DNA of 64,000 nucleotides from an uncultured Spirochaetota bacterium (GCA_963835575.1 CAWIGG010000004.1:352001-416000); one strand, 5' to 3'. Shown: positions 4,987-33,205, numbered from the stretch's first letter. The notes: generated by a model not told the origin, from the letters alone. Translations and numbers: made by a program.

Positions 4987-5036
4987 ATCCGATGTTTCAC
5001 ACGGATGACGCGGATTGAACGGATTTGCACGGATCA
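4987..5036 (+). repeat. Left arm, locus A (ACGGAT core, 9-bp period)
   Basis: ATCCGATGTTTCACACGGATGACGCGGATTGAACGGATTTGCACGGATCA; 40/50 identical to the reverse complement of 5683-5732. Confidence 0.9.
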
Positions 5037-5107
5037 GTTGATTGCTTCAAATATTATATGAAAATATATATATTTAAAAAAACGAAATGCTTTTATATGG
5101 AGTTGTA

Positions 5108-5638
5108 ATGAAGATAGCTTGTATTGGATGGGGATCACTTATTTGGAATCCTAGAAGACTTAAAACTCAAAATAAATGGTTTGAAGATGGGCCATTCTTG
5201 CCAATTGAATTCACGAGAATATCAAGAGACGATAGAGTAACCTTAATTATTGATGAGAAATCTAAACCTGTGCGGACTTTATGGACATTAATGACAACAG
5301 AATCTTTGGATGAAGGATTAAAGTCTTTAAAAGACCGAGAAGGATGTAAAAAAGAAGAAGATATTCATCATGTTACATCTTATGACGAACCAAAGGGTAA
5401 CATTCAAGAGACAATTAAGAAATGGATATTAGAAAAAAATTTAGATGCCGCTGTTTGGACAGGATTGTCATATAATAAGGAGAGACCGGATATTGATAGA
5501 ATTATTGAACACCTTGACAAACTCGAACGAAAGATTCAAATTTTGGCTGAAGAATACATAAGGAAAGCCCCCAAACAGATTGACACAGAATATAGACGAA
5601 GAATTGAAAAAGAGTTTGGATGGACTCTGATTGAATAA
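5108..5638 (+). CDS. AT-rich hypothetical protein, possibly gamma-glutamylcyclotransferase/ChaC-like fold
   Basis: N-terminal IGWGSLIW resembles the GGCT YGSL motif; L..REG motif; GGAG RBS. Confidence 0.55.
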   Translation: MKIACIGWGSLIWNPRRLKTQNKWFEDGPFLPIEFTRISRDDRVTLIIDEKSKPVRTLWTLMTTESLDEGLKSLKDREGCKKEEDIHHVTSYDEPKGNIQETIKKWILEKNLDAAVWTGLSYNKERPDIDRIIEHLDKLERKIQILAEEYIRKAPKQIDTEYRRRIEKEFGWTLIE

Positions 5639-5682
5639 TTTGCATGAATACACAAAAAGTATTTAACCAATAATTTTCTTTA

Positions 5683-5732
5683 TAATCCGTGAAAATCAGT
5701 GTCATCCGTGTTATCCGTGTGAATAATCGGAT
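5683..5732 (-). repeat. Right arm, locus A (inverted)
   Basis: Reverse complement reads ATCCGATTATTCACACGGATAACACGGATGACACTGATTTTCACGGATTA. Confidence 0.9.
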
Positions 5733-5760
5733 ATTACAAAAAAGCTTGAGGTATAAAAAC

Positions 5761-7503
5761 ATGAAAAGAAGCTTGTTTTTAAAAATCTGGATGGGTTTTC
5801 TGGCTTTAATAATACTGTTCGCTGTTTTTTTCAATCTGTTTATTTACAGGATGATACGGGAATTTTATATTAACGGCCTTTCCGATCATTACCGGAGTAT
5901 CGGCGTTTATATGTCCGAACAGTTGAAGCCTTTACTGCTGAAGGGAAAGATCCCGGAATTAAACGAAAGGATCCGTTCCGACACGAAATTCCTGAATGCC
6001 CGCATTACCGTGATCCGGACAAACGGGGTAGTGCTGGCCGATTCCGAAGCGGAAGCGGCTTCCATGGCCAACCATCTGGACCGGCCCGAAGTTCAGGATG
6101 TGCTTTCCGGCGGCACGGGTTTTTCGCTTAGGTACAGCGCTACCGTCCACAAAAGAATGCTTTACTCGGCCGTGCCCGTGATGGACGCGGGAAAAATGAT
6201 AGGAATAGTAAGGCTCAGCCTCTTTTTCGATAAGGAAGAGGCATTCATCGGCATCATCCGTGGAAGAATATTGTTGATCGGGTTTTTGATTTTAACGGCA
6301 TCCTTCATTCTGGCGGCCCTTTTCTCCGGATGGATCACGCGGCCCATACAGGCGCTGATCCGTCTTTCCGAGGAATTCGCCGGCGGGAATTTCAAGGCGC
6401 GCCTTTACCTTAAACAAAGCGGGGAGTTCAGGGTCCTTTCCGAACGGTTTAACCTGATGACGGAAAAAATCGAGGAATTGTTCGGAACGGTCACCAAGCA
6501 GAACGAGGAGTCACGGGTCCTGATGAACGCCATCCCCGAAGGCATATTATTTCTGGATAAAAAAGGGGTCATCCTGCAATGGAACAAAGGCATGGAACCG
6601 ATGATTTCCATACCGGACCCGCGGAACAGGCATTACTGGGAGATCATCCGGGAATCCTCACTAATGGATTTTGTGGACGCGCTTAAGAAAACAAGCGGGC
6701 CCCTGTCTCAGGAAATCGGCATGGGCGGAAAACAATATCTGGCAAGCGGCGCCGTTCTGGAAAAGCAGGAAAGGATCATTCTTCTTTTTCATGATATTAC
6801 CGGTTTAAAGGACCTGGAAGTCATGAAGAAAGACCTGATCGCCAACGCTTCCCATGAGCTGAGGACCCCTCTAACCGCTATCAAGGGATTTCTGGAAACA
6901 CTTGAAATGGAACCGACCAAGGAAAGCCTGAAGAAATATCTTCCCGTTCTGCAGAGGCACACCGAAAGGCTGATCGCCATTGTGGAAGATCTGTTGAAGC
7001 TGTCAAAGATGGAGAGCCCGGAATTCCGCATCAATATCACCCGGATCAATGTCAAGGACCTGATCGATGTCTCAACGAAAATATTTATAAAAAAAATCGA
7101 GGACAAAAAGCTTTACCTGCGGACCGAATTGTTTGATTCTCCTCTGCAGATCGAGGGGGATGAGCTTCTCCTGCAGGACATGCTGATCAACCTTATCGAT
7201 AACGCCGTAAAATACACCGATGCCGGGGAGATCAGGGTACAGGTCGATCAGTCCGGCGGGGAAATTCTTTTCAAAATTACCGATACGGGTATCGGGATCC
7301 CGAATGAAAGCCTTTCCCGGATTTTCGAACGGTTTTACGTGGCGGATAAGTCCCGCTCGCGCCAGTCCGGCGGCACAGGTCTGGGACTTGCAATCGTCAA
7401 GCATATCGTACTTCTGCACCGGGGTTCAATCACGGTGGACAGCATTCCCGGCAAGGGTACAACTTTTACTGTAAGGATTCCTGTAAAATTAACCGGAAAT
7501 TAA
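5761..7503 (+). CDS. phoR: PhoR-type sensor histidine kinase (TM-HAMP-PAS-HisKA-HATPase)
   Basis: SHELRTPLTAIKG H-box, NLIDNAVKY, DTGIGI, FERFY and GTGLGLAIVKH; two TM segments. Confidence 0.9.
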   Translation: MKRSLFLKIWMGFLALIILFAVFFNLFIYRMIREFYINGLSDHYRSIGVYMSEQLKPLLLKGKIPELNERIRSDTKFLNARITVIRTNGVVLADSEAEAASMANHLDRPEVQDVLSGGTGFSLRYSATVHKRMLYSAVPVMDAGKMIGIVRLSLFFDKEEAFIGIIRGRILLIGFLILTASFILAALFSGWITRPIQALIRLSEEFAGGNFKARLYLKQSGEFRVLSERFNLMTEKIEELFGTVTKQNEESRVLMNAIPEGILFLDKKGVILQWNKGMEPMISIPDPRNRHYWEIIRESSLMDFVDALKKTSGPLSQEIGMGGKQYLASGAVLEKQERIILLFHDITGLKDLEVMKKDLIANASHELRTPLTAIKGFLETLEMEPTKESLKKYLPVLQRHTERLIAIVEDLLKLSKMESPEFRINITRINVKDLIDVSTKIFIKKIEDKKLYLRTELFDSPLQIEGDELLLQDMLINLIDNAVKYTDAGEIRVQVDQSGGEILFKITDTGIGIPNESLSRIFERFYVADKSRSRQSGGTGLGLAIVKHIVLLHRGSITVDSIPGKGTTFTVRIPVKLTGN

Positions 7504-7526
7504 CAATCTTCTGACGGATTATTAAT
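7485..7526 (+). promoter_or_regulatory. Putative Pho-box array upstream of the porin-pst operon
   Basis: TTAAC (7489), TTAAC (7500), CTGAC (7511), TTAAT (7522): exact 11-bp period. Confidence 0.65.
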
Positions 7527-7584
7527 CCGCATCTTCTAAAATATTCCTGCCTTAAATTTTAAAACCAAATAAGGAGGATATTTT

Positions 7585-8727
7585 ATGAAGAAGATTTTAG
7601 GCGCAATAACGCTGGTAATGATCCTTTCAACGGCGGCATTCGCGGAACTCAAAGTGGAATCCCTTACCTGGCTGGATATTGAGGAAACCATCGACACCAA
7701 CCCAAGCCCGAAAGTTGACGGAGGCGGCCAGTTCTACATCGGAAGGGAATATCTCACACTGTCCGGCGACATCGGCAAGGACTGGTTCGGAGACTCCATC
7801 AAAGGAAGAGTAACGTTTGATGCTACAAAAGCCGCTACGCCGATCAAGTACGCTTATTTTGACTGGACCATTCTGAAGACTTCCTACAGCTTCGTTCATG
7901 GCGAAGATACGAACACCGTCAGCCTGGCCAGTCTTGTATTATCAGGCGGTCTTCTCAAGAGCTATTTCGGCAACCTGGCATTCTGGGAATACCCCATTCC
8001 GGTAAAGGACGCAACAGAAAATTATTCCTCTACCAGTCAATATCTTAAACCCGCCGTTTCGGCCGATTTCGGCCTGATGCTTTCCGGAAAATTGCTCCCG
8101 GTCGAAGGCCTGACATCATCCCTTTTCTCTTATTACATCCAGGTCCTTAACGGCGAAAAGGGATACGAATCCGTTTATTCAGGATCTTTCCTGGGGACCA
8201 ACGCCGATTCATTCGTCGGCCAGTATTCGGCATTTATTTCACCTCTGGACGGTATTCTGATCGGCGGTACTTACCGTTACCAGGATTATAACCTTGTCAC
8301 AGGCAATAACGAGACATCCTATGCCCTGGTGGCGACGGCAAAAGACGTTATGGGAATACCTGTCGATTTCGTCGCGCAGTACATTATGATGAACTCGACT
8401 AATTTTTATGGGAAAGCCGTTAACGGCACAACCAATAATTACTTTAACGGCGTTGTATACACGGTTTCCCTGGGCTACGGTTTATTTGACGGCGCTTTTA
8501 CACCTTATGTCAGGTATGATTTCTACGACCAGAACACCGCCTCCAATAAAACCAACGATTCAGGCTCTCTTCTCTACATCGGCGCAAATATCAAGCTGGA
8601 CAAAAACAATATGGCCATCAAACCTATGTATACCATGTACCTGACTGAAAAAGACCAGCCGACAGGCGGCAAATTCAATATCAAGCTTGAATTCGAGTAC
8701 AAGCTGAACTTCAGCATCTGGCAGTAA
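7585..8727 (+). CDS. Putative outer-membrane beta-barrel (phosphate-porin-like)
   Basis: Signal peptide ending AFA; alternating aromatic beta-strands; KYAYFDW and PYVRYDFYD; first gene of the pst operon. Confidence 0.6.
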   Translation: MKKILGAITLVMILSTAAFAELKVESLTWLDIEETIDTNPSPKVDGGGQFYIGREYLTLSGDIGKDWFGDSIKGRVTFDATKAATPIKYAYFDWTILKTSYSFVHGEDTNTVSLASLVLSGGLLKSYFGNLAFWEYPIPVKDATENYSSTSQYLKPAVSADFGLMLSGKLLPVEGLTSSLFSYYIQVLNGEKGYESVYSGSFLGTNADSFVGQYSAFISPLDGILIGGTYRYQDYNLVTGNNETSYALVATAKDVMGIPVDFVAQYIMMNSTNFYGKAVNGTTNNYFNGVVYTVSLGYGLFDGAFTPYVRYDFYDQNTASNKTNDSGSLLYIGANIKLDKNNMAIKPMYTMYLTEKDQPTGGKFNIKLEFEYKLNFSIWQ

Positions 8728-8763
8728 CTTTTTGTCTAAATAACGAATAATAGTTATAATAAT

Positions 8764-8796
8764 AGGGTAGACTGGAAACAGTTTCCGGTCTGCCCT
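8764..8796 (+). terminator. Intergenic stem-loop between the porin gene and pstS
   Basis: AGGGTAGACTGGAAAC-A-GTTTCCGGTCTGCCCT (stem includes G.U pairs); weak U tail. Confidence 0.45.
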
Positions 8797-8822
8797 TAAT
8801 TCTAAAAAAAGGAGGAAATAAG

Positions 8823-9866
8823 ATGAAGAAAGTATTATTGACGATTTTAACCATATCCGTTTTCTGCATGGCGGGATTATACGGGGCTGATAAGATTGAC
8901 AGTCTCCTGGGGGCCGGGGCGACATTCCCATATCCCCTTTATTCCAAAATGTTTGACGTTTATAATCAGTCCATGAAAATCATGGTTAATTATCAGGCCA
9001 TCGGCTCAGGCGGCGGCATCCAGCAGCTGATCAGCAAAACCGTCGATTTCGGCGGCACGGACGCGCCTTTGAGCGACAATGAAAAAAAGGCCGCGAAAGG
9101 CGATGTGATACATATCCCGACCTGCCTTGGAGCTGTTGTGCTGACATACAACCTGCCCGGCGCCCCGGTCCTGAATTTCACTCCGGAAGTCATCGCGGGA
9201 ATATTCCTGGGCGCCATCACAAAATGGAACGACCCGAAGATCGCTGAGATCAACAAGGATGCCAAACTGCCCGACCTGGCTATCACCGTTGTCCACCGTT
9301 CAGACGGAAGCGGCACGACTTATACATTCAGCGACTATCTCACAACTGTCAGCCCCGAATGGAAAACCAAGGTGGGAACAGGAAAATCCCTTAACTGGCC
9401 CGCCGGTATCGGCGGAAAGGGAAATCCCGGCGTGACCGCCTATATCAAACAGCTTCCCGGCGCCATCGGCTATGTGGAAGAGGCATATGCCAGTCAAAAT
9501 AAAATGCCTATGGGCAAAATCAGGAACAAAAGCGGGAATTTTATCGAAGCCAATTTAAAATCCGTTATGAATGCGGCAAACATTGAAATACCTGCTCACA
9601 CTCAGGTTTCCATAGTAGACACGCCGGCCAAGGACGGCTATCCCATCTGTACTTTCACCTGGATCATTCTTTACAAGGAACAGTCTTACGGCGGCAGGCC
9701 TCTTAACAGGGCTAAAGAAGTCGTCAAGCTCATCCGGTGGATGGTCCATGACGGCCAGCAGTACAATGAAACGCTGGAATACGGAAAGCTTCCGGAAAAA
9801 GTGGTAAAACTCGCGGACGATTTATTGGATTCGGTGGTTTATGCAGGCAAAAAAGTTGCTAAATAA
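8823..9866 (+). CDS. pstS: Phosphate ABC transporter substrate-binding protein
   Basis: GAGATFPYPLY, YQAIGSGGG and RSDGSGTT motifs. Confidence 0.95.
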   Translation: MKKVLLTILTISVFCMAGLYGADKIDSLLGAGATFPYPLYSKMFDVYNQSMKIMVNYQAIGSGGGIQQLISKTVDFGGTDAPLSDNEKKAAKGDVIHIPTCLGAVVLTYNLPGAPVLNFTPEVIAGIFLGAITKWNDPKIAEINKDAKLPDLAITVVHRSDGSGTTYTFSDYLTTVSPEWKTKVGTGKSLNWPAGIGGKGNPGVTAYIKQLPGAIGYVEEAYASQNKMPMGKIRNKSGNFIEANLKSVMNAANIEIPAHTQVSIVDTPAKDGYPICTFTWIILYKEQSYGGRPLNRAKEVVKLIRWMVHDGQQYNETLEYGKLPEKVVKLADDLLDSVVYAGKKVAK

Positions 9867-10785
9867 TACAGCGCTCAAGAAAAGCGGGGGCAAGACCATT
9901 GCCCCCCCGTCTTATTTATTTTTTAATCAATCGTTCAAAACGGTACTGCTTTTCTGCACGGCAGCCGTCTGCGCGCTCCTCCTGGCCATGTTTATCAGCC
10001 TGATGATTTCGGCCTGGCCGTCCATACAAAAATTCGGCATGAGTTTTTTTGTAACAACAACCTGGGACCCGCTTTCCGGACAATTCGGCGCCCTTCCCTT
10101 CGCGCTGGGAACTTTATTGACATCCATCATAGCCTTAATAATATGCGTTCCCTTCGCATTAGCCGTAGCTTTGATACTGGGCGAATATTTCCCCGACGGG
10201 AAAATAGCGGCGGCGCTCAATTCGGCAATGGAACTTCTGGCCGGCATTCCATCCATCATTTTCGGGATGTGGGGGCTTTTCGCCCTTGTTCCTATAATCA
10301 GAATACTTGAAAGCAGGATCGGGGTCATTCCGCTCGGGGTCGGTATCTTCGCGGCCGCGCTTCTCCTGTCGATCATGATAATCCCCTACGCGGCGTCCAT
10401 ATCGCGCGAGGTGATCGGTATGGTGCCGGAAGACTTAAAGGAAGCCGCCTATTCTCTCGGGGCGACGCGCTTTGAAGTGATAAAAAAAGTGGTCCTTCCG
10501 CATGCCGGTTCCGGCATCATCGCCGGAATCCTCCTCTCTTTCGGCAGGGCGCTTGGAGAGACAATGGCCGTCACAATGGTCATCGGCAATTCCTATTTTA
10601 TGCCGTCGAATATATTCGGACCAGGCCATACGATCTCAAGCATCATCGCGAACGAATTTACTGAGGCGACCGACCCGGTTTACGTTTCCGCCCTCATCGA
10701 AATGGGCCTGGTGCTTTTTATCATAACAATTATATTCGGCATACTGGGAAGATATATAATCACAAAAATGAGTATCAAGGATTAA
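9841..10785 (+). CDS. pstC: Phosphate ABC transporter permease (start uncertain)
   Basis: ELLAGIPSIIFGMWG and GRALGETMAVTMVIGN. Confidence 0.93.
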   Translation: MQAKKLLNNTALKKSGGKTIAPPSYLFFNQSFKTVLLFCTAAVCALLLAMFISLMISAWPSIQKFGMSFFVTTTWDPLSGQFGALPFALGTLLTSIIALIICVPFALAVALILGEYFPDGKIAAALNSAMELLAGIPSIIFGMWGLFALVPIIRILESRIGVIPLGVGIFAAALLLSIMIIPYAASISREVIGMVPEDLKEAAYSLGATRFEVIKKVVLPHAGSGIIAGILLSFGRALGETMAVTMVIGNSYFMPSNIFGPGHTISSIIANEFTEATDPVYVSALIEMGLVLFIITIIFGILGRYIITKMSIKD

Positions 10786-10788
10786 ACC

Positions 10789-11652
10789 ATGGACAAAAAA
10801 GATAAAAAGGTAAAATCCGTCAGGATGAATAATTTCAAGGACAGGCTGTTTTTTTCCATAATTATTATTCTGTCAATTTTAACAATTGTCCCGCTGGTCT
10901 GGATCCTCGGCTATATAACAATCAACGGAATTTCTTTTATCAATTATGAGTTATTTACACAGCTGCCGAAACCGCCCGGGGAAAGCGGAGGCGGTATTAT
11001 TAACGCGATCATCGGTACTTTTATTATCGTTATTATCGCTTCGGCAGTCGCCATACCGATCGGGGTTTTCTCGGGGATCTATCTCGCGGAAAATAAGCAG
11101 GGGAAAATCGCTCAATTCGCCAGGATTGCCGTCGATGTCCTGCAGGGCGTGCCGTCGATAGTCATCGGGATCATCGCTTATGTCTGGATCGTGCTTCCCT
11201 CAAGAAGCTTTTCCGCCGTTTCGGGAAGCGCCGCCCTGGCCATTATGATGCTTCCCGTCATCATCAAAAACACGGAAGAAACATTAAAGCTGATCCCCTA
11301 TTCCATCAAGGAAGCGGCTTATTCCCTGGGCGTCCCGTATTACAGGGTAGTTTTAAGAATTGTTCTGCCGGCAGGCCTCAGCGGCATATTGACCGGGATA
11401 CTGGTCGGCGTCGCGAGGGTAACAGGCGAAACGGCGCCGCTCCTCTTTACGGCTTTCGGAAACCCTTTTAATGAGTTCAATCCGCTCAAACCGATGGAAA
11501 CAATCCCCCATATTATATTTAAATACGCGACAAGCCCCTATACAGATTGGCAGAACATTGCCTGGGGCGCGTCTTTTATCCTGGTGGCTTTTGTTTTATT
11601 CATGAATCTTATTGCGAAGGCGGTGGCAAACAAATGGAAGGTAAAATTTTGA
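10789..11652 (+). CDS. pstA: Phosphate ABC transporter permease
   Basis: GVPSIVIG and [14 protein letters not shown]. Confidence 0.93.
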
Positions 11653-12404: not shown

Positions 12405-12414
12405 GAGAAAAAGT

Positions 12415-13110: not shown

Positions 13111-13111
13111 C

Positions 13112-17731: not shown

Positions 17732-17758
17732 AGGCAGATATTGTATTTTATTTTTTTT

Positions 17759-17863
17759 GCCACTGAATTTCACAGAAGAGCACGGAAAAAACATTAAACA
17801 GTCAAAAGAGTTATTTGGTTTTCATCAATAATAATTCCGTGTTTTTCTGTGTCATTCTGTGGC
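17759..17863. repeat. Locus B: empty inverted pair of 10-bp-period arms
   Basis: GCCACTGAATTTCACAGAAGAGCACGGAA (17759-17787) vs reverse complement of 17835-17863, GCCACAGAATGACACAGAAAAACACGGAA; 24/29 identical. Confidence 0.85.
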
Positions 17864-17913
17864 TGATCCTGTAATATTCCCATATTGATATTCACTTTAT
17901 AGTTTATCCTGGA

Positions 17914-17984: not shown

Positions 17985-18485
17985 ATGTCTTTAAAAAAAG
18001 TCGGTATTATCATGGGAAGCGATTCCGATCTTCCCATAATGCAGGAAACCGCGGATATGCTTAAAAAATTCAATATTCCCTTCGAAATGACCGTTATATC
18101 GGCCCACCGGACACCTGAAAAGGCCTTTGAATACGCCCGGACAGCCGAGGAAAGAGGTTTGAGTGTCATCATTGCCGGCGCGGGAGGCGCGGCGCACCTG
18201 CCCGGCGTGATCGCCGCTTTAACACCTCTTCCGGTGATCGGCGTGCCGATCCTTTCCAAAAGCCTCTCCGGAATGGACTCGCTTTTTTCTATCGTACAGA
18301 TGCCGAAAGGCATACCTGTCGCAGCAGTCGCAGTCAACGGCGCCGCCAACGCGGCCATACTGGCCGTGCAGATGCTGGGCATCGGTGATGAAAAAATAAG
18401 ACAAGCTGTAAAAGAATACAAGGAAAAATTGAAGGAAGAAGTGGCGGAAAAGGCGAAGAAGGTAGAGGAAACTTCAAAAAATTAA
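17985..18485 (+). CDS. purE: N5-carboxyaminoimidazole ribonucleotide mutase
   Basis: [25 protein letters not shown] and SIVQMP. Confidence 0.96.
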
Positions 18486-18632
18486 CCACCAAGATCACAA
18501 AGAGCACGAAGGACCACCAACGGGGATTAACGGCACTTCATTTTCTAACAAAAGATTTTAATTAACTATTCTCTATAATAATATCCGATTGTTCACACGG
18601 ATCAGACGGATTGGGCGGATTTGCGCGGATTC
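18484..18632 (+). repeat. Left composite arm, locus C (CACCAAG/CACAAAG/CACGAAG array, linker, then CGGAT array)
   Basis: Imperfect inverted match to 19906-20056; inner part 18583-18632 closely resembles the locus A left arm. Confidence 0.85.
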
Positions 18633-18858
18633 GGGGGGACGAATTCAACCACAGATTTCACAGACGCCGTGGTGAGCAAAGTCGAACCATTACACTGAAG
18701 GGAAAATAAATATGATGGGCAGTATCTAGCTAATATGATTTTATTATTTGCAAATGAGGTGAGTAAAGGAGTATAATTTTAACGGATAATGAGTTATATT
18801 TGTATATTTTGAGTTGGGCTAAAGCGGTGCACAATCATTAATATTTCTGGAGTAATTT

Positions 18859-19806
18859 ATGATTAAACCAAAAATATTTATCAGTTGTGGACAAGATAAA
18901 TCATCTGATGAATATAAAATAGCTGAAATAATTAAAAACAAAATTGATGATACTGATAAATATATTGGTTATGTTGCAACACTTGAACAATCAAACAAAG
19001 GTTTATTAAATAATATACTATATGAACTTGAAACTGCCGAATATTTTATATTTATTGATTTTATAAGAGAAAAATTACTTGATAAAAATGATAATTTTAT
19101 TGGTTATAGAGGTTCATTATTTACAAATCAAGAATTAAGTATAGCTTCATATTTTGGAATTGAAACAATTGCATTTCAAGAAAAAGGAATCAAATCTTAT
19201 GACGGAATGATTGGAGCCATGCAATTAAATGTTCAAAAACATCATGTTTTTGAACCAAATGAAAGAAATATTTTACCTGATAAGGTGATTGATGAAATTC
19301 AAAATAGATTTACACCATTATGGAAAAATAAAATTAACTTATCAGATATCAAAATTGTAAATAATGTTAAAAAATATAGGATCATTAATTTTTCTCAAAA
19401 AGAAGATTTTTTTGCTAATCATTATCAAATTAAAGTTGAAAACCTTCATAAGGATAAAATTGCCTTAAATTGTTACGCATTTATTGAATCAATATTAGAT
19501 TTAGAAAATAATACACCTATTCAAACTCAAACAGTAGAATTAAAATGGGCAGGTGTTATTAATATTCCTAATGTTTCAATAATTAATCAGTCACATAGAA
19601 TGCTTGATGCCTTCTTTTATGATGTCGCCTACCCAAAGAAAATATATTTTTGCAGTTATAGTGATTCAGATGAAAATCTTCCTCCTTTAGAATCTTCCAA
19701 TAAATATAAAATTTGCTATATGATTGTTTCTTCTAATTTTAGAATTGAAAAAAGGAATTATATAATTGAATTTATTAATAATATATGGCAGATGAATCCC
19801 GAATAA
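18859..19806 (+). CDS. AT-rich hypothetical protein with N-terminal TIR-like/nucleotide-binding domain
   Basis: KIFISCGQ start and SLFTNQELSIA helix with Glu, typical of TIR/DUF4062/NDT-like domains; own promoter-like TTGCAA-N18-TATAAT at 18748-18777. Confidence 0.5.
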   Translation: MIKPKIFISCGQDKSSDEYKIAEIIKNKIDDTDKYIGYVATLEQSNKGLLNNILYELETAEYFIFIDFIREKLLDKNDNFIGYRGSLFTNQELSIASYFGIETIAFQEKGIKSYDGMIGAMQLNVQKHHVFEPNERNILPDKVIDEIQNRFTPLWKNKINLSDIKIVNNVKKYRIINFSQKEDFFANHYQIKVENLHKDKIALNCYAFIESILDLENNTPIQTQTVELKWAGVINIPNVSIINQSHRMLDAFFYDVAYPKKIYFCSYSDSDENLPPLESSNKYKICYMIVSSNFRIEKRNYIIEFINNIWQMNPE

Positions 19807-19905: not shown

Positions 19906-20056
19906 AAATCCTATAAAATCTGTATCAATCAGTGAAAATCTGTGTAAACAATCGGGGTAACTAGAAAGAAAGATTGATTAATAATCATTGTTTTACAATA
20001 AAGTGTGTTTAATCCCCAGTTGGTGTTACTTGGTGTTCTTTGTGTCTTAGTGGTGA
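19906..20056 (-). repeat. Right composite arm, locus C (inverted)
   Basis: Reverse complement reads CACCACTAAGACACAAAGAACACCAAGTAACACCAACTGGGGATTAA...CCGATTGTTTACACAGATTTTCACTGATTGATACAGATTTTATAGGATT. Confidence 0.85.
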
Positions 20057-21829: not shown

Positions 21830-22034
21830 TCCGCTAAGCCACGCGAAGTCACGCCAAGTGAAAATCTACTATACAAGTATTTTTGATTTTATCTTGTCTT
21901 TATTATTTACATTAGATTACCCGGTTAAATCCGTTTTATTCGTGGTTTTCCTTTCCCGGTTTCCTTTCGCGTCTATTCGCGTGTATTAGCGGATTATCCA
22001 GTTTTCCCTAAGACACGCGAAGTCATGTCAAATG
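21830..22034. repeat. Locus D: empty inverted pair of 10-bp-period arms plus a third, direct copy
   Basis: TCCGCTAAGCCACGCGAAGTCACGCCAAGTGAAA (21830-21863) vs reverse complement of 21960-21993, 26/34 identical; extra copy at 22006-22034. Confidence 0.8.
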
Positions 22035-26504: not shown

Positions 26505-26519
26505 CGAGGGGAAAAGGAA

Positions 26520-26768
26520 GTGCTGGTTTTATCAAGACGCGAAGATGAGTCCATCATCATAAACGATGATATAGAAATTAAAGTGATCGGCGTCAAACAG
26601 GATCAGGTTAAAATCGGTATTGTCGCGCCGAAGTCAGTAAAAATATTCAGAAAGGAAATCTATGATGAAATACAGAGCGCTAATATAGCAGCCGCCGCGA
26701 GCGCTGCCGGCAAAGTAGGAGACCTCAAAGAAGCATTATCACAGAAAGAAAAAAAGGGGGAGGTATGA
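26520..26768 (+). CDS. csrA: Carbon storage regulator CsrA
   Basis: MLVLSRR..ESIII, VKIGIVAPK.V.IFRKEIY. Confidence 0.95.
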   Translation: MLVLSRREDESIIINDDIEIKVIGVKQDQVKIGIVAPKSVKIFRKEIYDEIQSANIAAAASAAGKVGDLKEALSQKEKKGEV

Positions 26769-26986
26769 TCAGCAAAGAAAAGCTGGAAATGCTTAAATAT
26801 TACAATAAAGGGCTGGAATTATACAGACAGAGGCAATTCAAGGAATCAAAGGAATATTTTAAAAAAAGCCTGGAAATCGTTCCGGGCGACGGGCCTTCCC
26901 GGATATATATTGAAAGGTGCGATGCTTTTATTCAAAACCCGCCCCCGCCGGATTGGGACGGCGTATTTGTTATGACCACAAAATAA
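26765..26986 (+). CDS. Small TPR-like protein
   Basis: GLELYRQRQF..A/S..YF, DGPS..YIERC and PPPDWDGVF. Confidence 0.65.
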   Translation: MISKEKLEMLKYYNKGLELYRQRQFKESKEYFKKSLEIVPGDGPSRIYIERCDAFIQNPPPPDWDGVFVMTTK

Positions 26987-27000
26987 GGAGGGATTAGAAA

Positions 27001-27351
27001 ATGCCCCAGAATATTGATCCATACAGGGATTATCCGACAACAACAACTCTCAGCAATACATCTCTCTTCAACGGAGTGATTAGTTTCAAAAATTCTCTGC
27101 GGATTGACGGTGAATATACCGGCAAAATAGACGCCGACGGCCTTCTCGTTGTCGGGCCGCAGGCCAAAATCAAAGGCGACGTTGTCTGCGAAGAAGTCAT
27201 CCTCGGCGGCGAGATCCGCGGAAATATCTTTGCCAAAAAGCGCCTGGAGCTTCTCGAAAGCGCGAAACTTTACGGGGATATCAAAACAGCCAAGTTAAAA
27301 ATCGCGGACGGCGTTATTTTCGAAGGAAAATGCGAGATGACGCAGAAATAA
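27001..27351 (+). CDS. Bactofilin (polymer-forming cytoskeletal protein)
   Basis: LRIDG, GDV, GEIRGNI, GDIKT and FEGKC beta-helix pattern. Confidence 0.88.
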   Translation: MPQNIDPYRDYPTTTTLSNTSLFNGVISFKNSLRIDGEYTGKIDADGLLVVGPQAKIKGDVVCEEVILGGEIRGNIFAKKRLELLESAKLYGDIKTAKLKIADGVIFEGKCEMTQK

Positions 27352-27360
27352 AAAATCCTG

Positions 27361-27389
27361 TTGACATAATTTATCTTTGAACGTACAAT
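27361..27389 (+). promoter_or_regulatory. Putative sigma70 promoter
   Basis: TTGACA-N17-TACAAT. Confidence 0.65.
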
Positions 27390-27443
27390 GTATCTCATGA
27401 AAAGCTGGCGTGTGCGGTCCTGCCTTTCTTCAGGAGGTGTGAA

Positions 27444-27779
27444 ATGGTGAATGTAGAGAAAAAAGGCGAAGTCGTTGTTTTAAAAGTATCCGGAAGGCTT
27501 GAAATCAATCAGGCCCTTGAATTGGAAGAGATAATCAATACCCATATAAATAACGGCAGCAAGTTTTTTATTTTTGATCTGGGCGATGTCCATTATCTTT
27601 CCTCAAGCGGGATCCGCGTCTGCATCGCCACTCTCAGGCAGTTAAAAGACATTAAGGGAAGAATGATCCTTTCCAACCTCAGCTCGAACGTCATCAAAAC
27701 GCTTAAAATCGTCGAGCTGGACGGCCTTTTTGAGATCATCAACTCGACGGACAAAGCGGTCAAAGCATTATCGAAATAA
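27444..27779 (+). CDS. STAS-domain anti-sigma-factor antagonist
   Basis: GRLE and DLGDVHYLSSSGIRV. Confidence 0.85.
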   Translation: MVNVEKKGEVVVLKVSGRLEINQALELEEIINTHINNGSKFFIFDLGDVHYLSSSGIRVCIATLRQLKDIKGRMILSNLSSNVIKTLKIVELDGLFEIINSTDKAVKALSK

Positions 27780-28195
27780 TGAGCTTCCGCTTTTTACTCG
27801 CCCTTGCCGGTTTTATACTTATTGTCGGTAGCGGTTCGGCCTGGCTCTTTTATAATATTATAAAAAAGAAAAATCTTCTAAGGGATCTCCTCAATCTTCC
27901 CAAGGAAAGAAGGCTTTTCTGGTATAAGCTCCGCGAGGCGGGTTTTACAATCATATCACACAATACCATCAAAGAAATAGAACTTATCATAGACGGTATG
28001 GATAAAAGCTATTCATTAAAAGCGGATTTTATCGTCAAAAAAAAGAACAGGAAATATGTCTCTCTTTTCGCCCCTCACTTCGAGGAAAAAGAATACCTTA
28101 AACAGCTTTTTGCCTACAGCATCGCTTTCAACGCCGACGGGGTGATTTATTATAATGAAAGCGAAAAGAATTTTACCGTCTGGGAAATGAAGTAA
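27779..28195 (+). CDS. Membrane-anchored hypothetical protein
   Basis: N-terminal TM segment; ADFIVKK and QLFAY weakly suggest a degenerate PD-(D/E)XK fold. Confidence 0.55.
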   Translation: MSFRFLLALAGFILIVGSGSAWLFYNIIKKKNLLRDLLNLPKERRLFWYKLREAGFTIISHNTIKEIELIIDGMDKSYSLKADFIVKKKNRKYVSLFAPHFEEKEYLKQLFAYSIAFNADGVIYYNESEKNFTVWEMK

Positions 28196-28212
28196 ACTTA
28201 CCTTTTTTTGCC

Positions 28213-28420
28213 GACCCCAATTCGGCAGGATGAGTGTTATTCTACAGGAAGGCACGAAGGCGCGAAGGGCTACGCCTGTAAAATAAAAGATTGATAAATC
28301 AAAATCCCTTCATATTTAATTAAGATTTTTAAATCGACCCCAATAGAACAGGATCAGCAGGATGTAACAGGATTTGCAGGATGGGTATTAATGTTACAGG
28401 AAGGCACAAAGGCGGTAAGG
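28213..28420 (+). repeat. Left arms, locus E (two tandem copies: GACCCCAAT, CAGGAT array, CACGAAG array)
   Basis: Copies at 28213-28268 and 28336-28420; the second matches the reverse complement of 33118-33205. Confidence 0.85.
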
Positions 28421-28494
28421 TATTATTACAATCAATCCGGGAACGATTGAAAAGTAATAGAGTGGCCTAAATATGAGGTAAAAAAGGGGGTAAT

Positions 28495-28836
28495 ATGAAA
28501 CTCAAAGATTTTATTTCTGAAACTTTGAAAGAAATAATTGATGGTGTAAGCGATGCACAAAAATATTATAGTGAGAAAGGTGGATTAATCAATCCAGTTT
28601 TAGATTTCACAGGAGCTGATAAAGCAGTAGTTTATTATGCTCGAGATACTCAACAAATTCCTCAATTCATAGATTTTGATGTTGCGATAACTGCTTCAGA
28701 GGAATCTGGAACAAAAGGTGGAATAGGAGTTTGGGTTGGGCCAGTAGGAGCAGGTATTAAAGGAAAGTCTGATACTTCAAATACTTCAACTAATCGAATT
28801 AAATTTTCAATACCGGTTATTTTACCTAAGGGATAA
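28495..28836 (+). CDS. AT-rich hypothetical protein, Trypco2-like
   Basis: MKLKDFISETL..I..GV..AQ, IDFDVAIT, Gly-rich segment and RIKFSIPV pattern. Confidence 0.55.
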   Translation: MKLKDFISETLKEIIDGVSDAQKYYSEKGGLINPVLDFTGADKAVVYYARDTQQIPQFIDFDVAITASEESGTKGGIGVWVGPVGAGIKGKSDTSNTSTNRIKFSIPVILPKG

Positions 28837-28864
28837 ATAAGATTGTAATAAATTGGAGGTTATT

Positions 28865-29080
28865 ATGCCTAATGAAACAATTAAAAGAGAAAGAGAACTA
28901 AGTAGGAAGGATACAATTCCCCCTAAAACTACTTATGATCTTAAAGTTATTAAGAATACGGGTACTTATGGATTTGAAAAGGATAGTAACGAATTACTAA
29001 ACAATGGTTATGAACTCAAATTTGCTTCTACTATTGCTCCTAATGAATTAGTGGGTTTTTTTATTAAAAAGAACCATTAA
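28865..29080 (+). CDS. Small hypothetical protein
   Basis: GGAGG RBS before ATG 28865; 71 aa. Confidence 0.55.
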   Translation: MPNETIKRERELSRKDTIPPKTTYDLKVIKNTGTYGFEKDSNELLNNGYELKFASTIAPNELVGFFIKKNH

Positions 29081-29125
29081 TTTCTATTTTTAAGGCCCTC
29101 AATTAAATTTTCTATACCAGTAGCT

Positions 29126-30521
29126 GAGTTATAATAGAAAGTTGTGTATAGGAATAAATATTATAAAAAAGATGGCGTACCCTCTATAATTTATTTACGA
29201 CAATAAACAAAAGGAGGAATACGCCATATGCCGAAGCACAACGAAGATTTTAAGCTCTTACAGGCTTTTAATCAAGATGAAACAGTAGAATTTTTATGTC
29301 TTGAAGAATTGGCAAGGATCGGGGCCAGGGAAATAATCAAGAAGGCTCTGGAAGATGAAATTAATGGGTTTCTTCAGGAGAGAGAGCATTTAACTATCGA
29401 AGACGGGAGAAAGGCAATAGTAAGAAATGGGTATCATAAAGCCCGTCAGATTCTCATTGGTGGAGGGGCTATTGATGTATGTATTCCGAGAACAAGGAAC
29501 CGACTCGGAGGCGACAATTTTCAAAGCCTAATAGTACCGCCGTATATGAGAAAAAGCCTGAGAATTGAGGAAGCCATTCCATTGTTGTATCTCTATGGAG
29601 TCTCAGAGATGGATATGGAGAATGCCTTGAGAGGATTGCTTGGTGAAGAAGCGAAAGGATTATCAGCCTCAAGTATAAGCAGAATGAAACAAGGATGGGG
29701 TAAAGAATATGATGAGTGGCGGACATCCGATTTAAGCGATAAAAAGTATTGCTATATATGGGTTGACGGCATTTACTTCAATGTACAGGGCAGCGAAGAC
29801 CGTTTATGCACTCTTGTAATGATCGGAGCCAATGAGAATGGTGAAAAGGAGATTATTCTTGTTGAAGAAGGTTACAGAGAGAATTCCGAGACTTGGTTAG
29901 GGATATTAAGAAACCTAAAAGAAAAAGGTTTGAAAGGTCCTATTCTTTTTATCGGAGACGGAAGCCTTGGATTCTGGAAAGCAGCCAAAGAAGTATATCC
30001 TGAATCCAGATGGCAGAGATGCTGGGTTCATAAGATAAAGAACATTCTAAACAAGCTGCCCAAAGTATTACAGTCAAAGGCAAAAGAGATGCTTCATGAG
30101 ATATGCAATGCTCCTGATAAGGATAATGCTATCAAAGCTTTTGAATTATTCCAGGCGGTTTTTAATCCTAAATATCCAGCAGCTGTCGAATGTTTAGAAA
30201 AGGATTGGGAGCTTATGATCGAATTTTATAACTGTCCGGCGGAACATTGGGTACATATCCGTACGACAAACGTAATAGAATCTACCTTCTCTACAGTTCG
30301 ATTAAGAACTAAAAAGATGAGAGGCTGCGGAACCAGGGAAACGATTCTAATAATGGTCTATAAATTACTGGATAAGGCATCCAGGCGATGGAGAAAATTA
30401 AGAGGTTATGAAAAGATTAGCCTTGTATTGGAAGGCGCTGTTTTTGAGAACGGAGAGCTTGTAAAAAAGGCAGCATAAAAAAATGAGAGGGTATGTCATA
30501 CACAACATTTGACAAAAACTC
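29126..30521 (+). mobile_element. IS256-family insertion sequence, copy 1 (1396 bp)
   Basis: Imperfect terminal IRs GAGTTATAATAGAAAGTTGTGTAT / ATACACAACATTTGACAAAAACTC; 8-bp target duplication CAGTAGCT. Confidence 0.95.
29228..30478 (+). CDS. IS256-family transposase
   Basis: RNGY, WVDGIY, IGDG..GFW, WQRCWVHK and RTTNVIES. Confidence 0.95.
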   Translation: MPKHNEDFKLLQAFNQDETVEFLCLEELARIGAREIIKKALEDEINGFLQEREHLTIEDGRKAIVRNGYHKARQILIGGGAIDVCIPRTRNRLGGDNFQSLIVPPYMRKSLRIEEAIPLLYLYGVSEMDMENALRGLLGEEAKGLSASSISRMKQGWGKEYDEWRTSDLSDKKYCYIWVDGIYFNVQGSEDRLCTLVMIGANENGEKEIILVEEGYRENSETWLGILRNLKEKGLKGPILFIGDGSLGFWKAAKEVYPESRWQRCWVHKIKNILNKLPKVLQSKAKEMLHEICNAPDKDNAIKAFELFQAVFNPKYPAAVECLEKDWELMIEFYNCPAEHWVHIRTTNVIESTFSTVRLRTKKMRGCGTRETILIMVYKLLDKASRRWRKLRGYEKISLVLEGAVFENGELVKKAA

Positions 30522-30624
30522 CAGTAGCTTTATTTACAAGATAACCGATAATAATTTACTCTTCAGACAATTGACTTTATAATAACAGTAATAATAAACT
30601 ATTTATGTGAAATAAGGAGTTATT

Positions 30625-30960
30625 ATGGAAAAGGATATACCTGAAATAACAGTTAATTACAAAAAATCAGATTCTTATAGGTCATATCATGCTGATGGTT
30701 TTTTTGGGGGACTTACTCCAAGAGGTTATTTATATATGGAACCCTTTATTGATAGGAGAGTTACCCCCAAAACAATGGTTCATAAAATTATTGATGGAAG
30801 TATTGACTCTGGAACTGTAAAAGAATCTTTAGAGGGTACAATAAGAGAAATTGAATGTGGTATAATAATGGATTTTGAAACTGCTCGAACATTAAGAGAC
30901 TGGCTTGAAGGTAAAATTAAAGAATATGATGGAATAAAACTTATAAAAAAGGGGAAATAA
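30625..30960 (+). CDS. Hypothetical protein (possibly DUF3467-like) upstream of the TA pair
   Basis: AAGGAG RBS; HADGFFGG.TPRG and REIE.GIIMD motifs; stop abuts the next ATG. Confidence 0.6.
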   Translation: MEKDIPEITVNYKKSDSYRSYHADGFFGGLTPRGYLYMEPFIDRRVTPKTMVHKIIDGSIDSGTVKESLEGTIREIECGIIMDFETARTLRDWLEGKIKEYDGIKLIKKGK

Positions 30961-31248
30961 ATGAATAATTACCTATATGATTTAGATTTAATGTCTCAAG
31001 ATTCTTCTTACGGATGTTTTATTATAGGATTTAAAATAGGCAAATATGCTACAAAAGATGTGTATTCAATGATAGGAGCCCAGGCAATGTCAACATCATC
31101 ACTTGTTAAGCTATCTAAGGTATCAGGAATTCAAGTCGAACAAAAAATTCAGTTTAATGCTGGGTTTAGTTCTATGCTTGCAAGTGAAGAATCTTTAAAG
31201 AAAGAATGGTTGTTGCCTGAGGAGGATGAAGCTTGGAAAGATTTGTGA
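30961..31248 (+). CDS. Putative antitoxin (DUF2281-like C-terminus)
   Basis: LASEESLKKEWLLPEEDEAWKDL; overlaps the toxin start. Confidence 0.7.
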   Translation: MNNYLYDLDLMSQDSSYGCFIIGFKIGKYATKDVYSMIGAQAMSTSSLVKLSKVSGIQVEQKIQFNAGFSSMLASEESLKKEWLLPEEDEAWKDL

Positions 31249-31416
31249 AAGGGGAAGTTGTTGTTTTAGATTTCCCATTTTCAGATAGATCAAGGGTAAA
31301 AAGAAGGCCTGCTGTTGTACTTTCTGAGATTGAACAAAGTGGCGCGGTAGTAATAACTAATTTAGATGGAGAAGATATAATATTATGTCAAGTTACATCG
31401 GTAAATTATAAGGATG

Positions 31417-32812
31417 GAGTTTTTGTCAAATGTTGTGTATGACATACCCTCTCATTTTTTTATGCTGCCTTTTTTACAAGCTCTCCGTTCTCAAAAACAG
31501 CGCCTTCCAATACAAGGCTAATCTTTTCATAACCTCTTAATTTTCTCCATCGCCTGGATGCCTTATCCAGTAATTTATAGACCATTATTAGAATCGTTTC
31601 CCTGGTTCCGCAGCCTCTCATCTTTTTAGTTCTTAATCGAACTGTAGAGAAGGTAGATTCTATTACGTTTGTCGTACGGATATGTACCCAATGTTCCGCC
31701 GGACAGTTATAAAATTCGATCATAAGCTCCCAATCCTTTTCTAAACATTCGACAGCTGCTGGATATTTAGGATTAAAAACCGCCTGGAATAATTCAAAAG
31801 CTTTGATAGCATTATCCTTATCAGGAGCATTGCATATCTCATGAAGCATCTCTTTTGCCTTTGACTGTAATACTTTGGGCAGCTTGTTTAGAATGTTCTT
31901 TATCTTATGAACCCAGCATCTCTGCCATCTGGATTCAGGATATACTTCTTTGGCTGCTTTCCAGAATCCAAGGCTTCCGTCTCCGATAAAAAGAATAGGA
32001 CCTTTCAAACCTTTTTCTTTTAGGTTTCTTAATATCCCTAACCAAGTCTCGGAATTCTCTCTGTAACCTTCTTCAACAAGAATAATCTCCTTTTCACCAT
32101 TCTCATTGGCTCCGATCATTACAAGAGTGCATAAACGGTCTTCGCTGCCCTGTACATTGAAGTAAATGCCGTCAACCCATATATAGCAATACTTTTTATC
32201 GCTTAAATCGGATGTCCGCCACTCATCATATTCTTTACCCCATCCTTGTTTCATTCTGCTTATACTTGAGGCTGATAATCCTTTCGCTTCTTCACCAAGC
32301 AATCCTCTCAAGGCATTCTCCATATCCATCTCTGAGACTCCATAGAGATACAACAATGGAATGGCTTCCTCAATTCTCAGGCTTTTTCTCATATACGGCG
32401 GTACTATTAGGCTTTGAAAATTGTCGCCTCCGAGTCGGTTCCTTGTTCTCGGAATACATACATCAATAGCCCCTCCACCAATGAGAATCTGACGGGCTTT
32501 ATGATACCCATTTCTTACTATTGCCTTTCTCCCGTCTTCGATAGTTAAATGCTCTCTCTCCTGAAGAAACCCATTAATTTCATCTTCCAGAGCCTTCTTG
32601 ATTATTTCCCTGGCCCCGATCCTTGCCAATTCTTCAAGACATAAAAATTCTACTGTTTCATCTTGATTAAAAGCCTGTAAGAGCTTAAAATCTTCGTTGT
32701 GCTTCGGCATATGGCGTATTCCTCCTTTTGTTTATTGTCGTAAATAAATTATAGAGGGTACGCCATCTTTTTTATAATATTTATTCCTATACACAACTTT
32801 CTATTATAACTC
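31417..32812 (-). mobile_element. IS256-family insertion sequence, copy 2 (1396 bp)
   Basis: Same IRs as copy 1, inverted; 8-bp target duplication TAAGGATG. Confidence 0.95.
31460..32710 (-). CDS. IS256-family transposase
   Basis: Protein identical to 29228..30478. Confidence 0.95.
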   Translation of the reverse strand: MPKHNEDFKLLQAFNQDETVEFLCLEELARIGAREIIKKALEDEINGFLQEREHLTIEDGRKAIVRNGYHKARQILIGGGAIDVCIPRTRNRLGGDNFQSLIVPPYMRKSLRIEEAIPLLYLYGVSEMDMENALRGLLGEEAKGLSASSISRMKQGWGKEYDEWRTSDLSDKKYCYIWVDGIYFNVQGSEDRLCTLVMIGANENGEKEIILVEEGYRENSETWLGILRNLKEKGLKGPILFIGDGSLGFWKAAKEVYPESRWQRCWVHKIKNILNKLPKVLQSKAKEMLHEICNAPDKDNAIKAFELFQAVFNPKYPAAVECLEKDWELMIEFYNCPAEHWVHIRTTNVIESTFSTVRLRTKKMRGCGTRETILIMVYKLLDKASRRWRKLRGYEKISLVLEGAVFENGELVKKAA

Positions 32813-33117
32813 TAAGGATGCCATTGAAATTGATAATAAAGATTTTCAAGTTTTTAATCAAAATAAAAAATTAGATCACTTAAGTCATGTTAGACCAGAC
32901 AAATTATTTACTTTTTCAAAAAATGATATTAAATATAGTATAGGAAAATTAAATCAAAAAACAATAACTACTATTATTGATAAATTAATTGAAATAATAA
33001 AAAGATAATTGTTAAAGTTGATTATGTAATATTCACTTTTAATTATTCTACCAATTAAGGATCAGTCTGTACTTATAACCCCATCTAAAATCTGCATTAT
33101 AAGCAATGAACTTTATA

Positions 33118-33205
33118 CTTCGAAACTTCGTGTCTTCGTGTCTTTCTGTTAATTCCAAATCTTGATAATCCCGCATTATCCTGAAAATCCTGCTCTATTG
33201 GGGTC
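33118..33205 (-). repeat. Right arm, locus E (inverted)
   Basis: Reverse complement reads GACCCCAATAGAGCAGGATTTTCAGGATAATGCGGGATTATCAAGAT...ACAGAAAGACACGAAGACACGAAG. Confidence 0.85.

Follow-up and report, generated by a model that had tools for sequence, protein, structure and literature searches.

The window analysed here is a stretch of 64,000 nucleotides (nt) from an uncultured Spirochaetota bacterium (GCA_963835575.1, CAWIGG010000004.1:352001-416000), corresponding to positions 352001-416000 of contig C4 in a genome (G000) of 4.39 Mb in 7 contigs. Five loci in it, designated A to E, are each bounded by inverted arms of three to four repeated short words. These arms enclose AT-rich genes in A, C and E, and no gene in B and D. 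An original prediction, made from the sequence alone, had taken the loci for filled and empty states of an undescribed cassette system, and all five were recovered at the positions it gave. Their features, in window coordinates, are as follows; genes are on the plus strand, and arms and hairpins carry no strand.

4975..5034: left arm of A, with ~12 nt of conserved outer flank, an ATCCGAT lead-in (at 4987) and four CGGAT words; it begins 2 nt past the stop codon of the phoB-like gene
5087..5638, plus strand: cargo gene of A, encoding a protein of 176-183 amino acids (aa) of a widespread unnamed family; guanine-cytosine content (GC) 0.34
5685..5745: right arm of A, with ATCCGTG words, ATCGGAT and a conserved ATTACAAAAAAG flank; it stops 17 nt short of the ATG of the phoR-like gene
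17759..17863: B, a gene-less hairpin of CACAGAA/CACGGAA words
18484..18527: outermost left array of C, with CACCAAG/CACAAAG/CACGAAG words and the end ACGGGGAT
18583..18672: inner left arms of C, with an ATCCGAT lead-in and four CGGAT words, then a CACAGAT array broken by a short insert
18859..19806, plus strand: cargo gene of C, encoding a protein of 315 aa; GC 0.24
19907..20056: right arms of C, a degenerate inner arm (19907-19955) and an outer CTTGGTG/CTTTGTG array (20015-20056)
21830..21993: D, a gene-less hairpin of TCCGCTAAG and CACGCGAAG words
28213..28420: composite left side of E, with GACCCCAAT and one word, an xAAG array (28237-28266), a conserved linker, GACCCCAAT and four CAGGAT words (28336-28382), and an inner xAAG array
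28495..33007, plus strand: cargo of E, with open reading frames (ORFs) of 113 aa (weak Trypco2 match), 75 aa, 111 aa and 95 aa and a PemK-like toxin ORF
29126-30523: first copy of the insertion sequence (IS) IS256, in the cargo of E
31415-32812: second IS256 copy, in the cargo of E, splitting the PemK-like toxin ORF
33120..33205: right side of E, with an inner CTTCGTG array, then ATCCTG words ending CTATTGGGGTC, 7 nt from the hydF stop codon

A repeat search of the window returned the arms of A (4987-5034 and 5685-5732; 48 nt, 81% complementary), the outer arms of C (18496-18525 and 20015-20044; 30 nt, 83%) and the arms of D (21830-21863 and 21960-21993; 34 nt, 76%) and E (28336-28382 and 33159-33205; 47 nt, 74%). 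Locus B is absent from the 25 longest inverted pairs listed and is supported by folding instead: 17755-17868 folds as DNA into a single hairpin (z = -5.0), which none of 200 shuffles equalled. The fold of D (21840-21985) has a z of -3.7. The predicted positions of the arms were thus recovered, but the arms are longer than had been thought and composite, with 12-110 nt conserved beyond the lead-ins; the left side of E also includes the array at 28237-28266 and the second GACCCCAAT, at 28213. Just right of D, at 22005-22032, lies an extra partial left-arm copy (AAGACACGCGAAGTCATGTCAAATG) for which no partner was found.

According to Pfam matches, the neighbours of A are a gene for a phoB-like response regulator and one for a phoR-like kinase; purE and an epimerase gene flank C, and a 138-aa ORF and hydF flank E. 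The DNA enclosed in A, C and E is AT-rich, as had been noted, with a GC of 0.24-0.35 vs. 0.42-0.55 in the flanking genes. The two IS256 copies in E are 1398 nt each, identical and mutually inverted, and their independence is borne out by target duplications of their own, read directly as CAGTAGCT at the first copy and TAAGGA at the second. None of the five loci encodes a recombinase: the ORF scan found none, none of the 22 tyrosine-recombinase (PF00589) matches in the genome falls in the window, and no transposase besides IS256 was seen among the window ORFs scanned. An Rfam scan of the window returned two tRNAs only, with no rRNA and no family at the arms. Scans of A and of B-D for promoters and terminators returned no more sites than shuffles did, and no such role is therefore claimed for the arms.

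Comparison with relatives identifies A, C and E as insertions. In two genomes of another family of the order (G015 and G019), 0-3 nt separate the end of the phoB-like gene from the start of the phoR-like gene, and the two genes overlap in a genome of the same family (G006); the spacer of 788 nt at A is therefore extra. At C, purE and the convergent epimerase gene are ~25 nt apart, without arms, in the same-genus genome G003, vs. 1.58 kb here, and an unrelated gene of normal GC occupies this site in G001. The 138-aa ORF lies ~0-100 nt from hydF in four of four congeners, vs. 5.0 kb at E, and the longest of these congener spacers (in G002) holds a GC-rich hairpin without words. At the A, C and E junctions of the relatives compared, neither empty arms nor an alternative cargo was found; around B (kimA/purE) and D (218-aa ORF/flgN), they do not keep the same gene order. 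The cargo of A, C and E is absent from the orthologous junctions, where the relatives' sites are simply bare and not swapped. They document insertion, and not the states of capture and excision that had been proposed.

The arms belong to a genome-wide population. At least three identical 6-mers spaced 7-13 bp occur at 194 loci of the genome, and contig C4 has 49 such arrays vs. 8 in a Markov-3 simulation. Their cores reduce to a few words, i.e., CACGAAG, CACAGAT/CACAGAA, CAGGAT, CGGAT, CGCGAAT, CGCAAAG, CACGGAA and CGCTAAG. In a looser set of 550 5-mer arrays, 102 have a reverse-complement partner scoring at least 36 within 12 kb, vs. a single one in the reversed, non-complemented control. The 102 arrays collapse to 84 inverted pairs, with inner distances of either 20-400 bp (empty) or ~0.4-10 kb (filled), and both versions exist for the same arm types, as had been predicted. 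Single-layer empties with AT-rich loops of 20-110 nt are common, and filled interiors are usually lower in GC than their flanks. The few long pairs that enclose host-like GC (mutS, a phosphopantetheinyl transferase gene) are neighbouring elements mispaired. In every proper pair, the CAC-type words point inward from both sides. Among the 90 arms with a lead-in (looser set), the mean GC is 0.366 at 150-950 nt inward vs. 0.455 outward, and it is lower inward for 78 of them. Therefore, arms with and without a detected partner alike mark where host-like DNA gives way to AT-rich DNA.

The arms are also linked to one family of genes. The genome holds nine genes of the GxxExxY family of PD-(D/E)xK nucleases (PF13366), none of them in the window, and one four-helix gene of the type found in 23S rRNA intervening sequences (IVSs). 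All nine GxxExxY genes adjoin word arrays, of the CACGAAG, TCCGCTAAG/CACGCGAAG, CACAGAA, CACAGAT or xGGAAG type. An association with GxxExxY and four-helix genes had been mentioned in the original prediction, and it proved correct. The four-helix gene (in the region G000:C6:1988-3860) lies between long tandem arrays of heptamer words (AGCTAAC/AGCCAGA), repeats with a period of 7 and many copies that differ in style from the CAC-word arms. The CACAGAA/CACGGAA arm type of B brackets a GxxExxY gene at G000:C2:377388-377726, and the TCCGCTAAG type of D brackets three such genes in this genome; B and D are thus gene-less relatives of nuclease cassettes. The nuclease proteins group by arm word, with identities of 74-81%, 77% and 69% within types and of 32-54% between types, and it follows that gene and arms duplicate together. 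Since arms are present at the five loci of the window and no PF13366 gene lies between them, these loci are derivatives and not full GxxExxY word-array cassettes.

The arm type of A was found around a nuclease gene elsewhere. A PF13366 gene (E = 1.3e-41) in the metagenome locus L149 has an ATCCGAT lead-in and four CGGAT words on one side and the matching right arm on the other. Thus, the same arm type is a nuclease-cassette arm in L149 and a passenger-cassette arm here. The locus has two tandem GxxExxY cassettes with such arms (L149:3960-5110). The same 40-nt copy of the 3' end of the upstream host gene stands before and after each of them, three copies in all, and the host ORF retains a stop codon, provided by the element's flank. 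These copies could be an unusually long target duplication or a product of recombination. In the metagenome scan, the strict arm pattern had no match and a looser one had 107, with real arrays in only three of the 79 loci retrieved; the remaining matches are at the level of chance for a pattern of 15 bases. Viral contigs gave no match to the GACCCCAAT-CAGGAT arm, and plasmids none to locus A.

The manner in which partner arms differ bears on what the words do. Mismatches between partners affect 28 of 387 positions in word cores (7%) vs. 166 of 566 in linkers (29%; Fisher p = 3e-18), which upholds the predicted concentration in linkers. In this test, 29 of 31 hand-picked pairs contributed (one had no 4-mer occurring three times and one gave no positions), and the cores were defined from the commonest 4-mer of the left arm, a choice that may exaggerate the contrast. 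With the cargo sense strand as reference, G:U-compatible mismatches number 44 vs. 47 of the A:C type, and 137 of 228 mismatches cannot pair. The arms of A do pair in the minimum-free-energy and centroid RNA folds of 4975-5745 (z = -2.7). Conserved words, drifting linkers, the lack of a G:U excess and the fact that a partner is rarely the best match (see below) together fit phased DNA recognition words better than a selected RNA stem. As judged from sequence, this favours words that serve as phased recognition sites on DNA over a stem maintained by compensatory changes. Of the two mechanisms originally proposed, phased sites for a trans-acting protein thus gain, since words are kept and nuclease clades track them, and a selected long RNA hairpin loses.

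Two types of lead-in recur in the arm families of A, C and E. The first is ATCCGAT-N4-CAC followed by CGGAT words (41 strict matches in the genome), and the second GACCCCAAT followed by CAGGAT words (38 matches). With at most one mismatch, the ATCCGAT arm pattern has 31 forward and 31 reverse copies in this genome and the reversed control pattern none. There are 0-2 copies per genome in 34 others of the order, two near-complete same-genus assemblies among them, and the GACCCCAAT-CAGGAT arm has 17 copies here and none in 400 other genomes of the phylum sample; counts in relatives are lower bounds, because many of these assemblies are fragmented and several of their arm matches lie at contig ends.

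Outward of the lead-ins, 12 nt are conserved in most copies and 60-110 nt in subsets. There, the outer portion consists of an array of another type and, after it, a conserved linker; the array is either CGCAAAG/CACGAAG with the end ACGGGGAT or xAAG with GGCTACGCC behind it. Such composites are matched by C, which has at least three array layers with its outer and inner arms, and by the extra left array of E (28237-28266). Gene-less elements with two to four concentric layers also exist, such as one of 584 bp at C4:883469-884052. Each layer type is found alone as well, the order of layers varies between loci, conserved junctions between layers recur at 6-8 loci, and pairs often combine different inner subtypes or modules. 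The layering suggests that elements landed in one another's centres, or that composites were copied.

Several smaller observations concern the arms. An insert of 22-27 nt of the form GATTCGGCAAGCTCACCACAAG breaks the word arrays in many arms, at window positions 18660-18690 among others and sometimes in just one arm of a pair. A related sequence flanks empties of the CACGAAG type, and the insert may be a further tiny layer. Arms ending ...CGGATC(A/G)G-NTGATT-(G/T)C lie 5' of the adjacent cargo gene in five of five hand-checked cases (window 5019-5050; G000:C4:596658, 599013, 893398 and 912107), and those ending AGGATTTAGTTTT mostly lie 3'. As the arm-end types differ by gene side, the two arms of an element may differ functionally. 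An arm segment of 182 bp is 95.6% identical at C2:307049-307230 and C4:940344-940525. The former copy is a complete empty hairpin, and the latter diverges after the second word of the right arm, which suggests a rearrangement breakpoint within the word array. The genome's best match to a XerC/D-like tyrosine recombinase (C2:1245275-1245784) lies ~110 nt upstream of a GACCCCAAT-armed element of 4.7 kb (C2:1245896-1250566), possibly by coincidence.

The cargo is diverse. That of A has at least 671 relatives, and a GGACT/ChaC-like assignment (score 0.84) is a lead only. At 79 loci of cargo A homologues from many other phyla, flanking inverted repeats had a median score of 24 vs. 25 in the control, and a score of at least 38 in two cases vs. 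none. Since these loci show no flanking repeat above control, the arms do not travel with the cargo A family. A cassette that moves between phyla together with its arms was rejected on the same result, and the arms are a property of the elements of this lineage and not of the cargo gene. The cargo of C has 55 relatives at no more than 44% identity. Residues 1-156 of its structure model (predicted local distance difference test score, pLDDT, 88) align best to TIR and nucleoside-deoxyribosyltransferase folds (Z 13.1, root-mean-square deviation 2.8 over 126 residues; Z 11.8-12.2). This predicted domain is followed by a C-terminal β-sandwich, and the fold it appears to share with both groups indicates no function. 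A Foldseek search with the whole model returned only unspecific matches of low template-modelling score (at most 0.35).

AT-rich interiors across the genome hold two Ser/Thr kinases (PD-T4-6/mad6-like), a Pycsar-like cyclase beside a 604-aa ORF, two Type ISP/IIG restriction enzymes, a Type II methylase with a weak match to a restriction endonuclease, an HTH-M78 protein with DUF4411, SocA/Panacea, a Gp49/HTH pair, DUF2971, a caspase-like protein and an ankyrin protein. Many of these resemble defence genes, toxin-antitoxin pairs among them. PADLOC found matches for 8 of 30 cargo proteins genome-wide and for none of the seven from A, C and E. The predicted nature of the cargo as defence or conflict genes holds for no more than part of the genome-wide cargo and drew no PADLOC match at the window's own loci. 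In the same-genus genome G002, CACAGAT arms bracket a 117-aa membrane ORF and a methylase-like ORF. IS256 copies, encoding a transposase of 416 aa, lie inside the AT-rich interiors of five arm-bounded elements, i.e., E and those at L020, L021, L027 and L032, and IS5/IS1182, IS481, IS21 and IS110 copies inside others. The element interiors appear to be insertion sinks.

All five loci may then belong to one superfamily of word-array elements that was amplified in this lineage. Each end would consist of three to four phased, inward-reading words of the CAC-N4 type (CACGAAG, CACAGAT, CGGAT/CAGGAT, CGCGAAT) with a conserved lead-in, and in the autonomous form the arms would enclose nothing but the gene of a small GxxExxY PD-(D/E)xK nuclease. 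B and D would be gene-less copies, like MITEs (miniature transposable elements with inverted repeats), and A, C and E non-autonomous copies with foreign AT-rich passengers in place of the nuclease gene. A trans-acting protein, for which a nuclease of the GxxExxY type is the most plausible candidate, would recognise the words as phased sites on DNA, and the elements would spread as DNA to gene junctions. Their centre could serve as a landing place for word elements, IS copies and foreign genes, which would yield nested layers and a load of passengers. The enzyme step and the capture step we infer. That the five loci are a non-autonomous, passenger-carrying or gene-less branch of nuclease word-array cassettes acting at the level of DNA has, in our estimate, about an even chance of being correct.

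Several observations weigh against this reading. Neighbouring lead-in arms within 15 kb are convergent in 18 cases, divergent in 6 and same-directed in 20 (mostly double-layer arms), but bracket matching within 20 kb pairs only 44 of the 90 lead-in arms, so that inverted pairing across the genome, as predicted, holds only in part. An inward partner scoring at least 38 was found for only 28 of 79 arms, vs. 9 outward; some partners, such as the inner right arm of C, are too degenerate for the pairing criteria. The partner is the mutual best match in only 1 of 13 pairs, with partner ranks of up to 43 of 89, and the rarity with which it is the closest relative fits recombination of arms or their independent origin as well as transposition of the unit. 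The flanks of the 84 pairs contain no direct repeat above a shuffled-pairing control bar three rows, a result that bears on long target duplications and not on those of 2-5 bp. These three rows, at or above the 99th percentile of the control, comprise one mispairing and an AGCTAA-heptamer locus counted twice. The co-occurrence of CAC-word triple arrays with PF13366 genes speaks for the link to the nuclease (of the order's 35 genomes, 9 have both, 3 have just arrays, 2 have just genes and 21 lack both), but the counts span related genomes and fragmented assemblies, which under-assemble repeats. None of the nine GxxExxY genes here has ATCCGAT or GACCCCAAT arms, and the cognate enzyme for A, C and E is therefore either missing from this genome or acts across word types. 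Finally, the cargo of a metagenome locus (L202:1-1693) lies between two composite right arms that are direct and not inverted. There, a small antitoxin-like ORF and a 123-aa PIN-like ORF are enclosed by arms of ATCCGTG words followed by ATCCTG words, 82-90% identical between copies and 1158 bp apart, in an array-like layout.

Alternatively, the arms might be resident hairpins, like repetitive extragenic palindromes (REPs) or bacterial interspersed mosaic elements (BIMEs), with no role in moving cargo. Their AT-rich loops would be preferred targets of insertion, and the bracketing of genes would be accidental. The copies of five IS groups in AT-rich interiors (IS256, IS5/IS1182, IS481, IS21 and IS110), the common empties with short AT-rich loops, the cargo A family without arms in other phyla and the different inner subtypes within pairs are all consistent with it. 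However, the junctions of A, C and E lack a hairpin in relatives, and this explanation therefore needs two separate events per locus. Moreover, GxxExxY genes co-diverge with their arms as units, and the junctions between layers conserved at 6-8 loci would need site-specific insertion or the copying of composites. We consider it unlikely, though serious enough to be kept in mind.

The arms could also be patches of homology of ~50-150 bp, at which RecA-type recombination, after uptake of DNA or between loci, swaps and spreads cargo. The minimal mobile elements of neisseriae resemble such a system. In agreement with this, the closest relative of an arm usually stands at another locus, pairs combine different inner modules, and the 182-bp segment shared by C2:307049 and C4:940344 diverges inside a word array, as a crossover would leave it. 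The model leaves the first arrival at junctions that are bare in relatives unexplained, and an arm identity of ~75-85% is poor for homologous recombination; we regard it as improbable.

Another possibility is that the arms act in RNA, as a long stem of the transcript cut by RNase III, which would insulate the foreign gene and restore expression of a split operon. The folding of the arms of A in RNA, the position of A inside the phoB-phoR operon and the four-helix IVS-type gene between repeat arrays argue for it, as does a precedent in Coxiella, whose IVS is described as a selfish element with an ORF in helix 45 (PMC4990558). However, G:U pairs are not in excess on the cargo sense strand (44 vs. 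47), 60% of mismatches are unpairable and 29% of linker positions mismatch. C and E lie between convergent genes, where no host transcript needs rescue, and no Rfam family matches. Taken together, this makes an RNA-level function very unlikely. The ORF-bearing IVSs of 23S rRNA in Coxiella and Leptospira are nevertheless similar in that a small selfish ORF, from the four-helix and GxxExxY families, lies between inverted repeats that can close a stem. They sit in a 23S rRNA helix and are cut out of the RNA by RNase III, whereas the present loci lie between protein genes in a window without rRNA and show no sign of selection for RNA pairing; the cargo of the word-array elements is diverse and measures up to ~9 kb.

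That the arms are attC-like folded sites used by the genome's tyrosine recombinases, as its 22 matches to this family and the direct composite arms of L202 might suggest, is highly improbable, since the window has no recombinase, the loci are dispersed singletons and not co-oriented arrays, half a palindrome stands on each side of the gene and not a whole site at its 3' end, and no GTTRRRY/RYYYAAC cores were read at the arm ends (...TGTAAT/ATCCGAT and ...TGTAT/GACCCCAAT, the slash marking the start of the lead-in). Integron cassettes do resemble the elements in having promoter-poor foreign genes with imperfect palindromes and both empty and filled states. Unlike them, the five loci are separate insertions at gene junctions, without an adjacent integrase, an integron-type recombinase or attI beside a co-oriented array, a tandem array or core triplets.

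The original prediction had held that the architecture is not that of attC, CRISPR or a classic IS, and this stands. CRISPR arrays consist of direct repeats of ~24-48 bp with unique spacers of similar length. Here, words of 5-9 bp at a spacing of 7-13 bp occur three to five per array, in inverted pairs. No transposase gene was found directly between a pair of word arms, and the IS copies inside are nested guests. Mobile insertion cassettes (MICs), such as MIC231 of Bacillus cereus, are non-autonomous elements bounded by inverted repeats that carry passenger genes; their ends are those of known ISs, and they leave the target duplication of the IS. Like these, the present elements have passengers between inverted repeats without a transposase of their own, would presumably be moved in trans and coexist with gene-less miniatures. 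They differ in that the ends are tandem words common to no IS, no long duplication was found and the only associated enzyme gene is that of a PD-(D/E)xK nuclease.

Dispersed intergenic inverted units that form hairpins, as in REPINs (REP doublets forming hairpins), are found, since B and D fold and 84 pairs exist. Further likenesses to REP/BIME and REPIN-RAYT systems are the mosaics with conserved linkers, amplification in one lineage and an association with one small gene family, but word arms enclose kilobases of genes and REPINs do not. The genome has a RAYT-like ORF of 182 aa (RAYT/IS200-like Y1 transposase) at G000:C2:500549-501097 (L135:1050-1598, minus strand). This ORF is flanked by GAGACGC...GCGTCTC palindromes, of which there are 29 in the genome, none in the window and one inside the ORF itself. 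The candidate that the arms are REPs of this gene was rejected because it carries its own, different palindrome, which represents a separate REP-RAYT system beside stacked word arrays.

Modules bounded by pdif sites on Acinetobacter plasmids (PMC6449649, PMC13141974) are accessory modules, often of toxin-antitoxin or resistance genes, with inversely oriented sites for a host enzyme encoded elsewhere. The present elements are likewise discrete accessory modules bounded by inverted sites for an enzyme that would be encoded elsewhere. The pdif sites are XerC/XerD sites of 28 bp on plasmids, whereas the arms are word arrays of 50-200 nt on a chromosome; no dif-like 11-6-11 core was seen on reading the arms, with no formal dif search made.

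In the full-text literature searched on GxxExxY and PDDEXK_3, no description of such cassettes was found within the collection covered, and the nuclease word-array cassette is apparently an undescribed selfish element. To this, the present case adds passengers other than the nuclease, private arm families, layered arms, the contrast between words and linkers and the negative RNA test. A wider role is conceivable, although we hold it to be doubtful: a cassette platform without a recombinase, in which the GxxExxY nuclease recognises phased words and opens the centre, the centre captures foreign genes, including anti-phage genes, and the bracket is later moved or exchanged. Beside integrons and the dif modules that depend on Xer enzymes, accessory genes would then have a third mode of packaging, one spread over many phyla.

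The arms offer a cheap annotation marker of foreign DNA, since 78 of 90 face an AT-rich block, and they can account for operons that have been split, as phoB-phoR has here. Should a trans-acting nuclease recognise the arms, the GxxExxY proteins, a large orphan family, would gain a testable job. The small defence and toxin-antitoxin genes of many genomes would then gain a route of delivery and packaging. Current finders of mobile elements overlook such a route, since it offers them no recombinase, transposase or long target duplication to search by.

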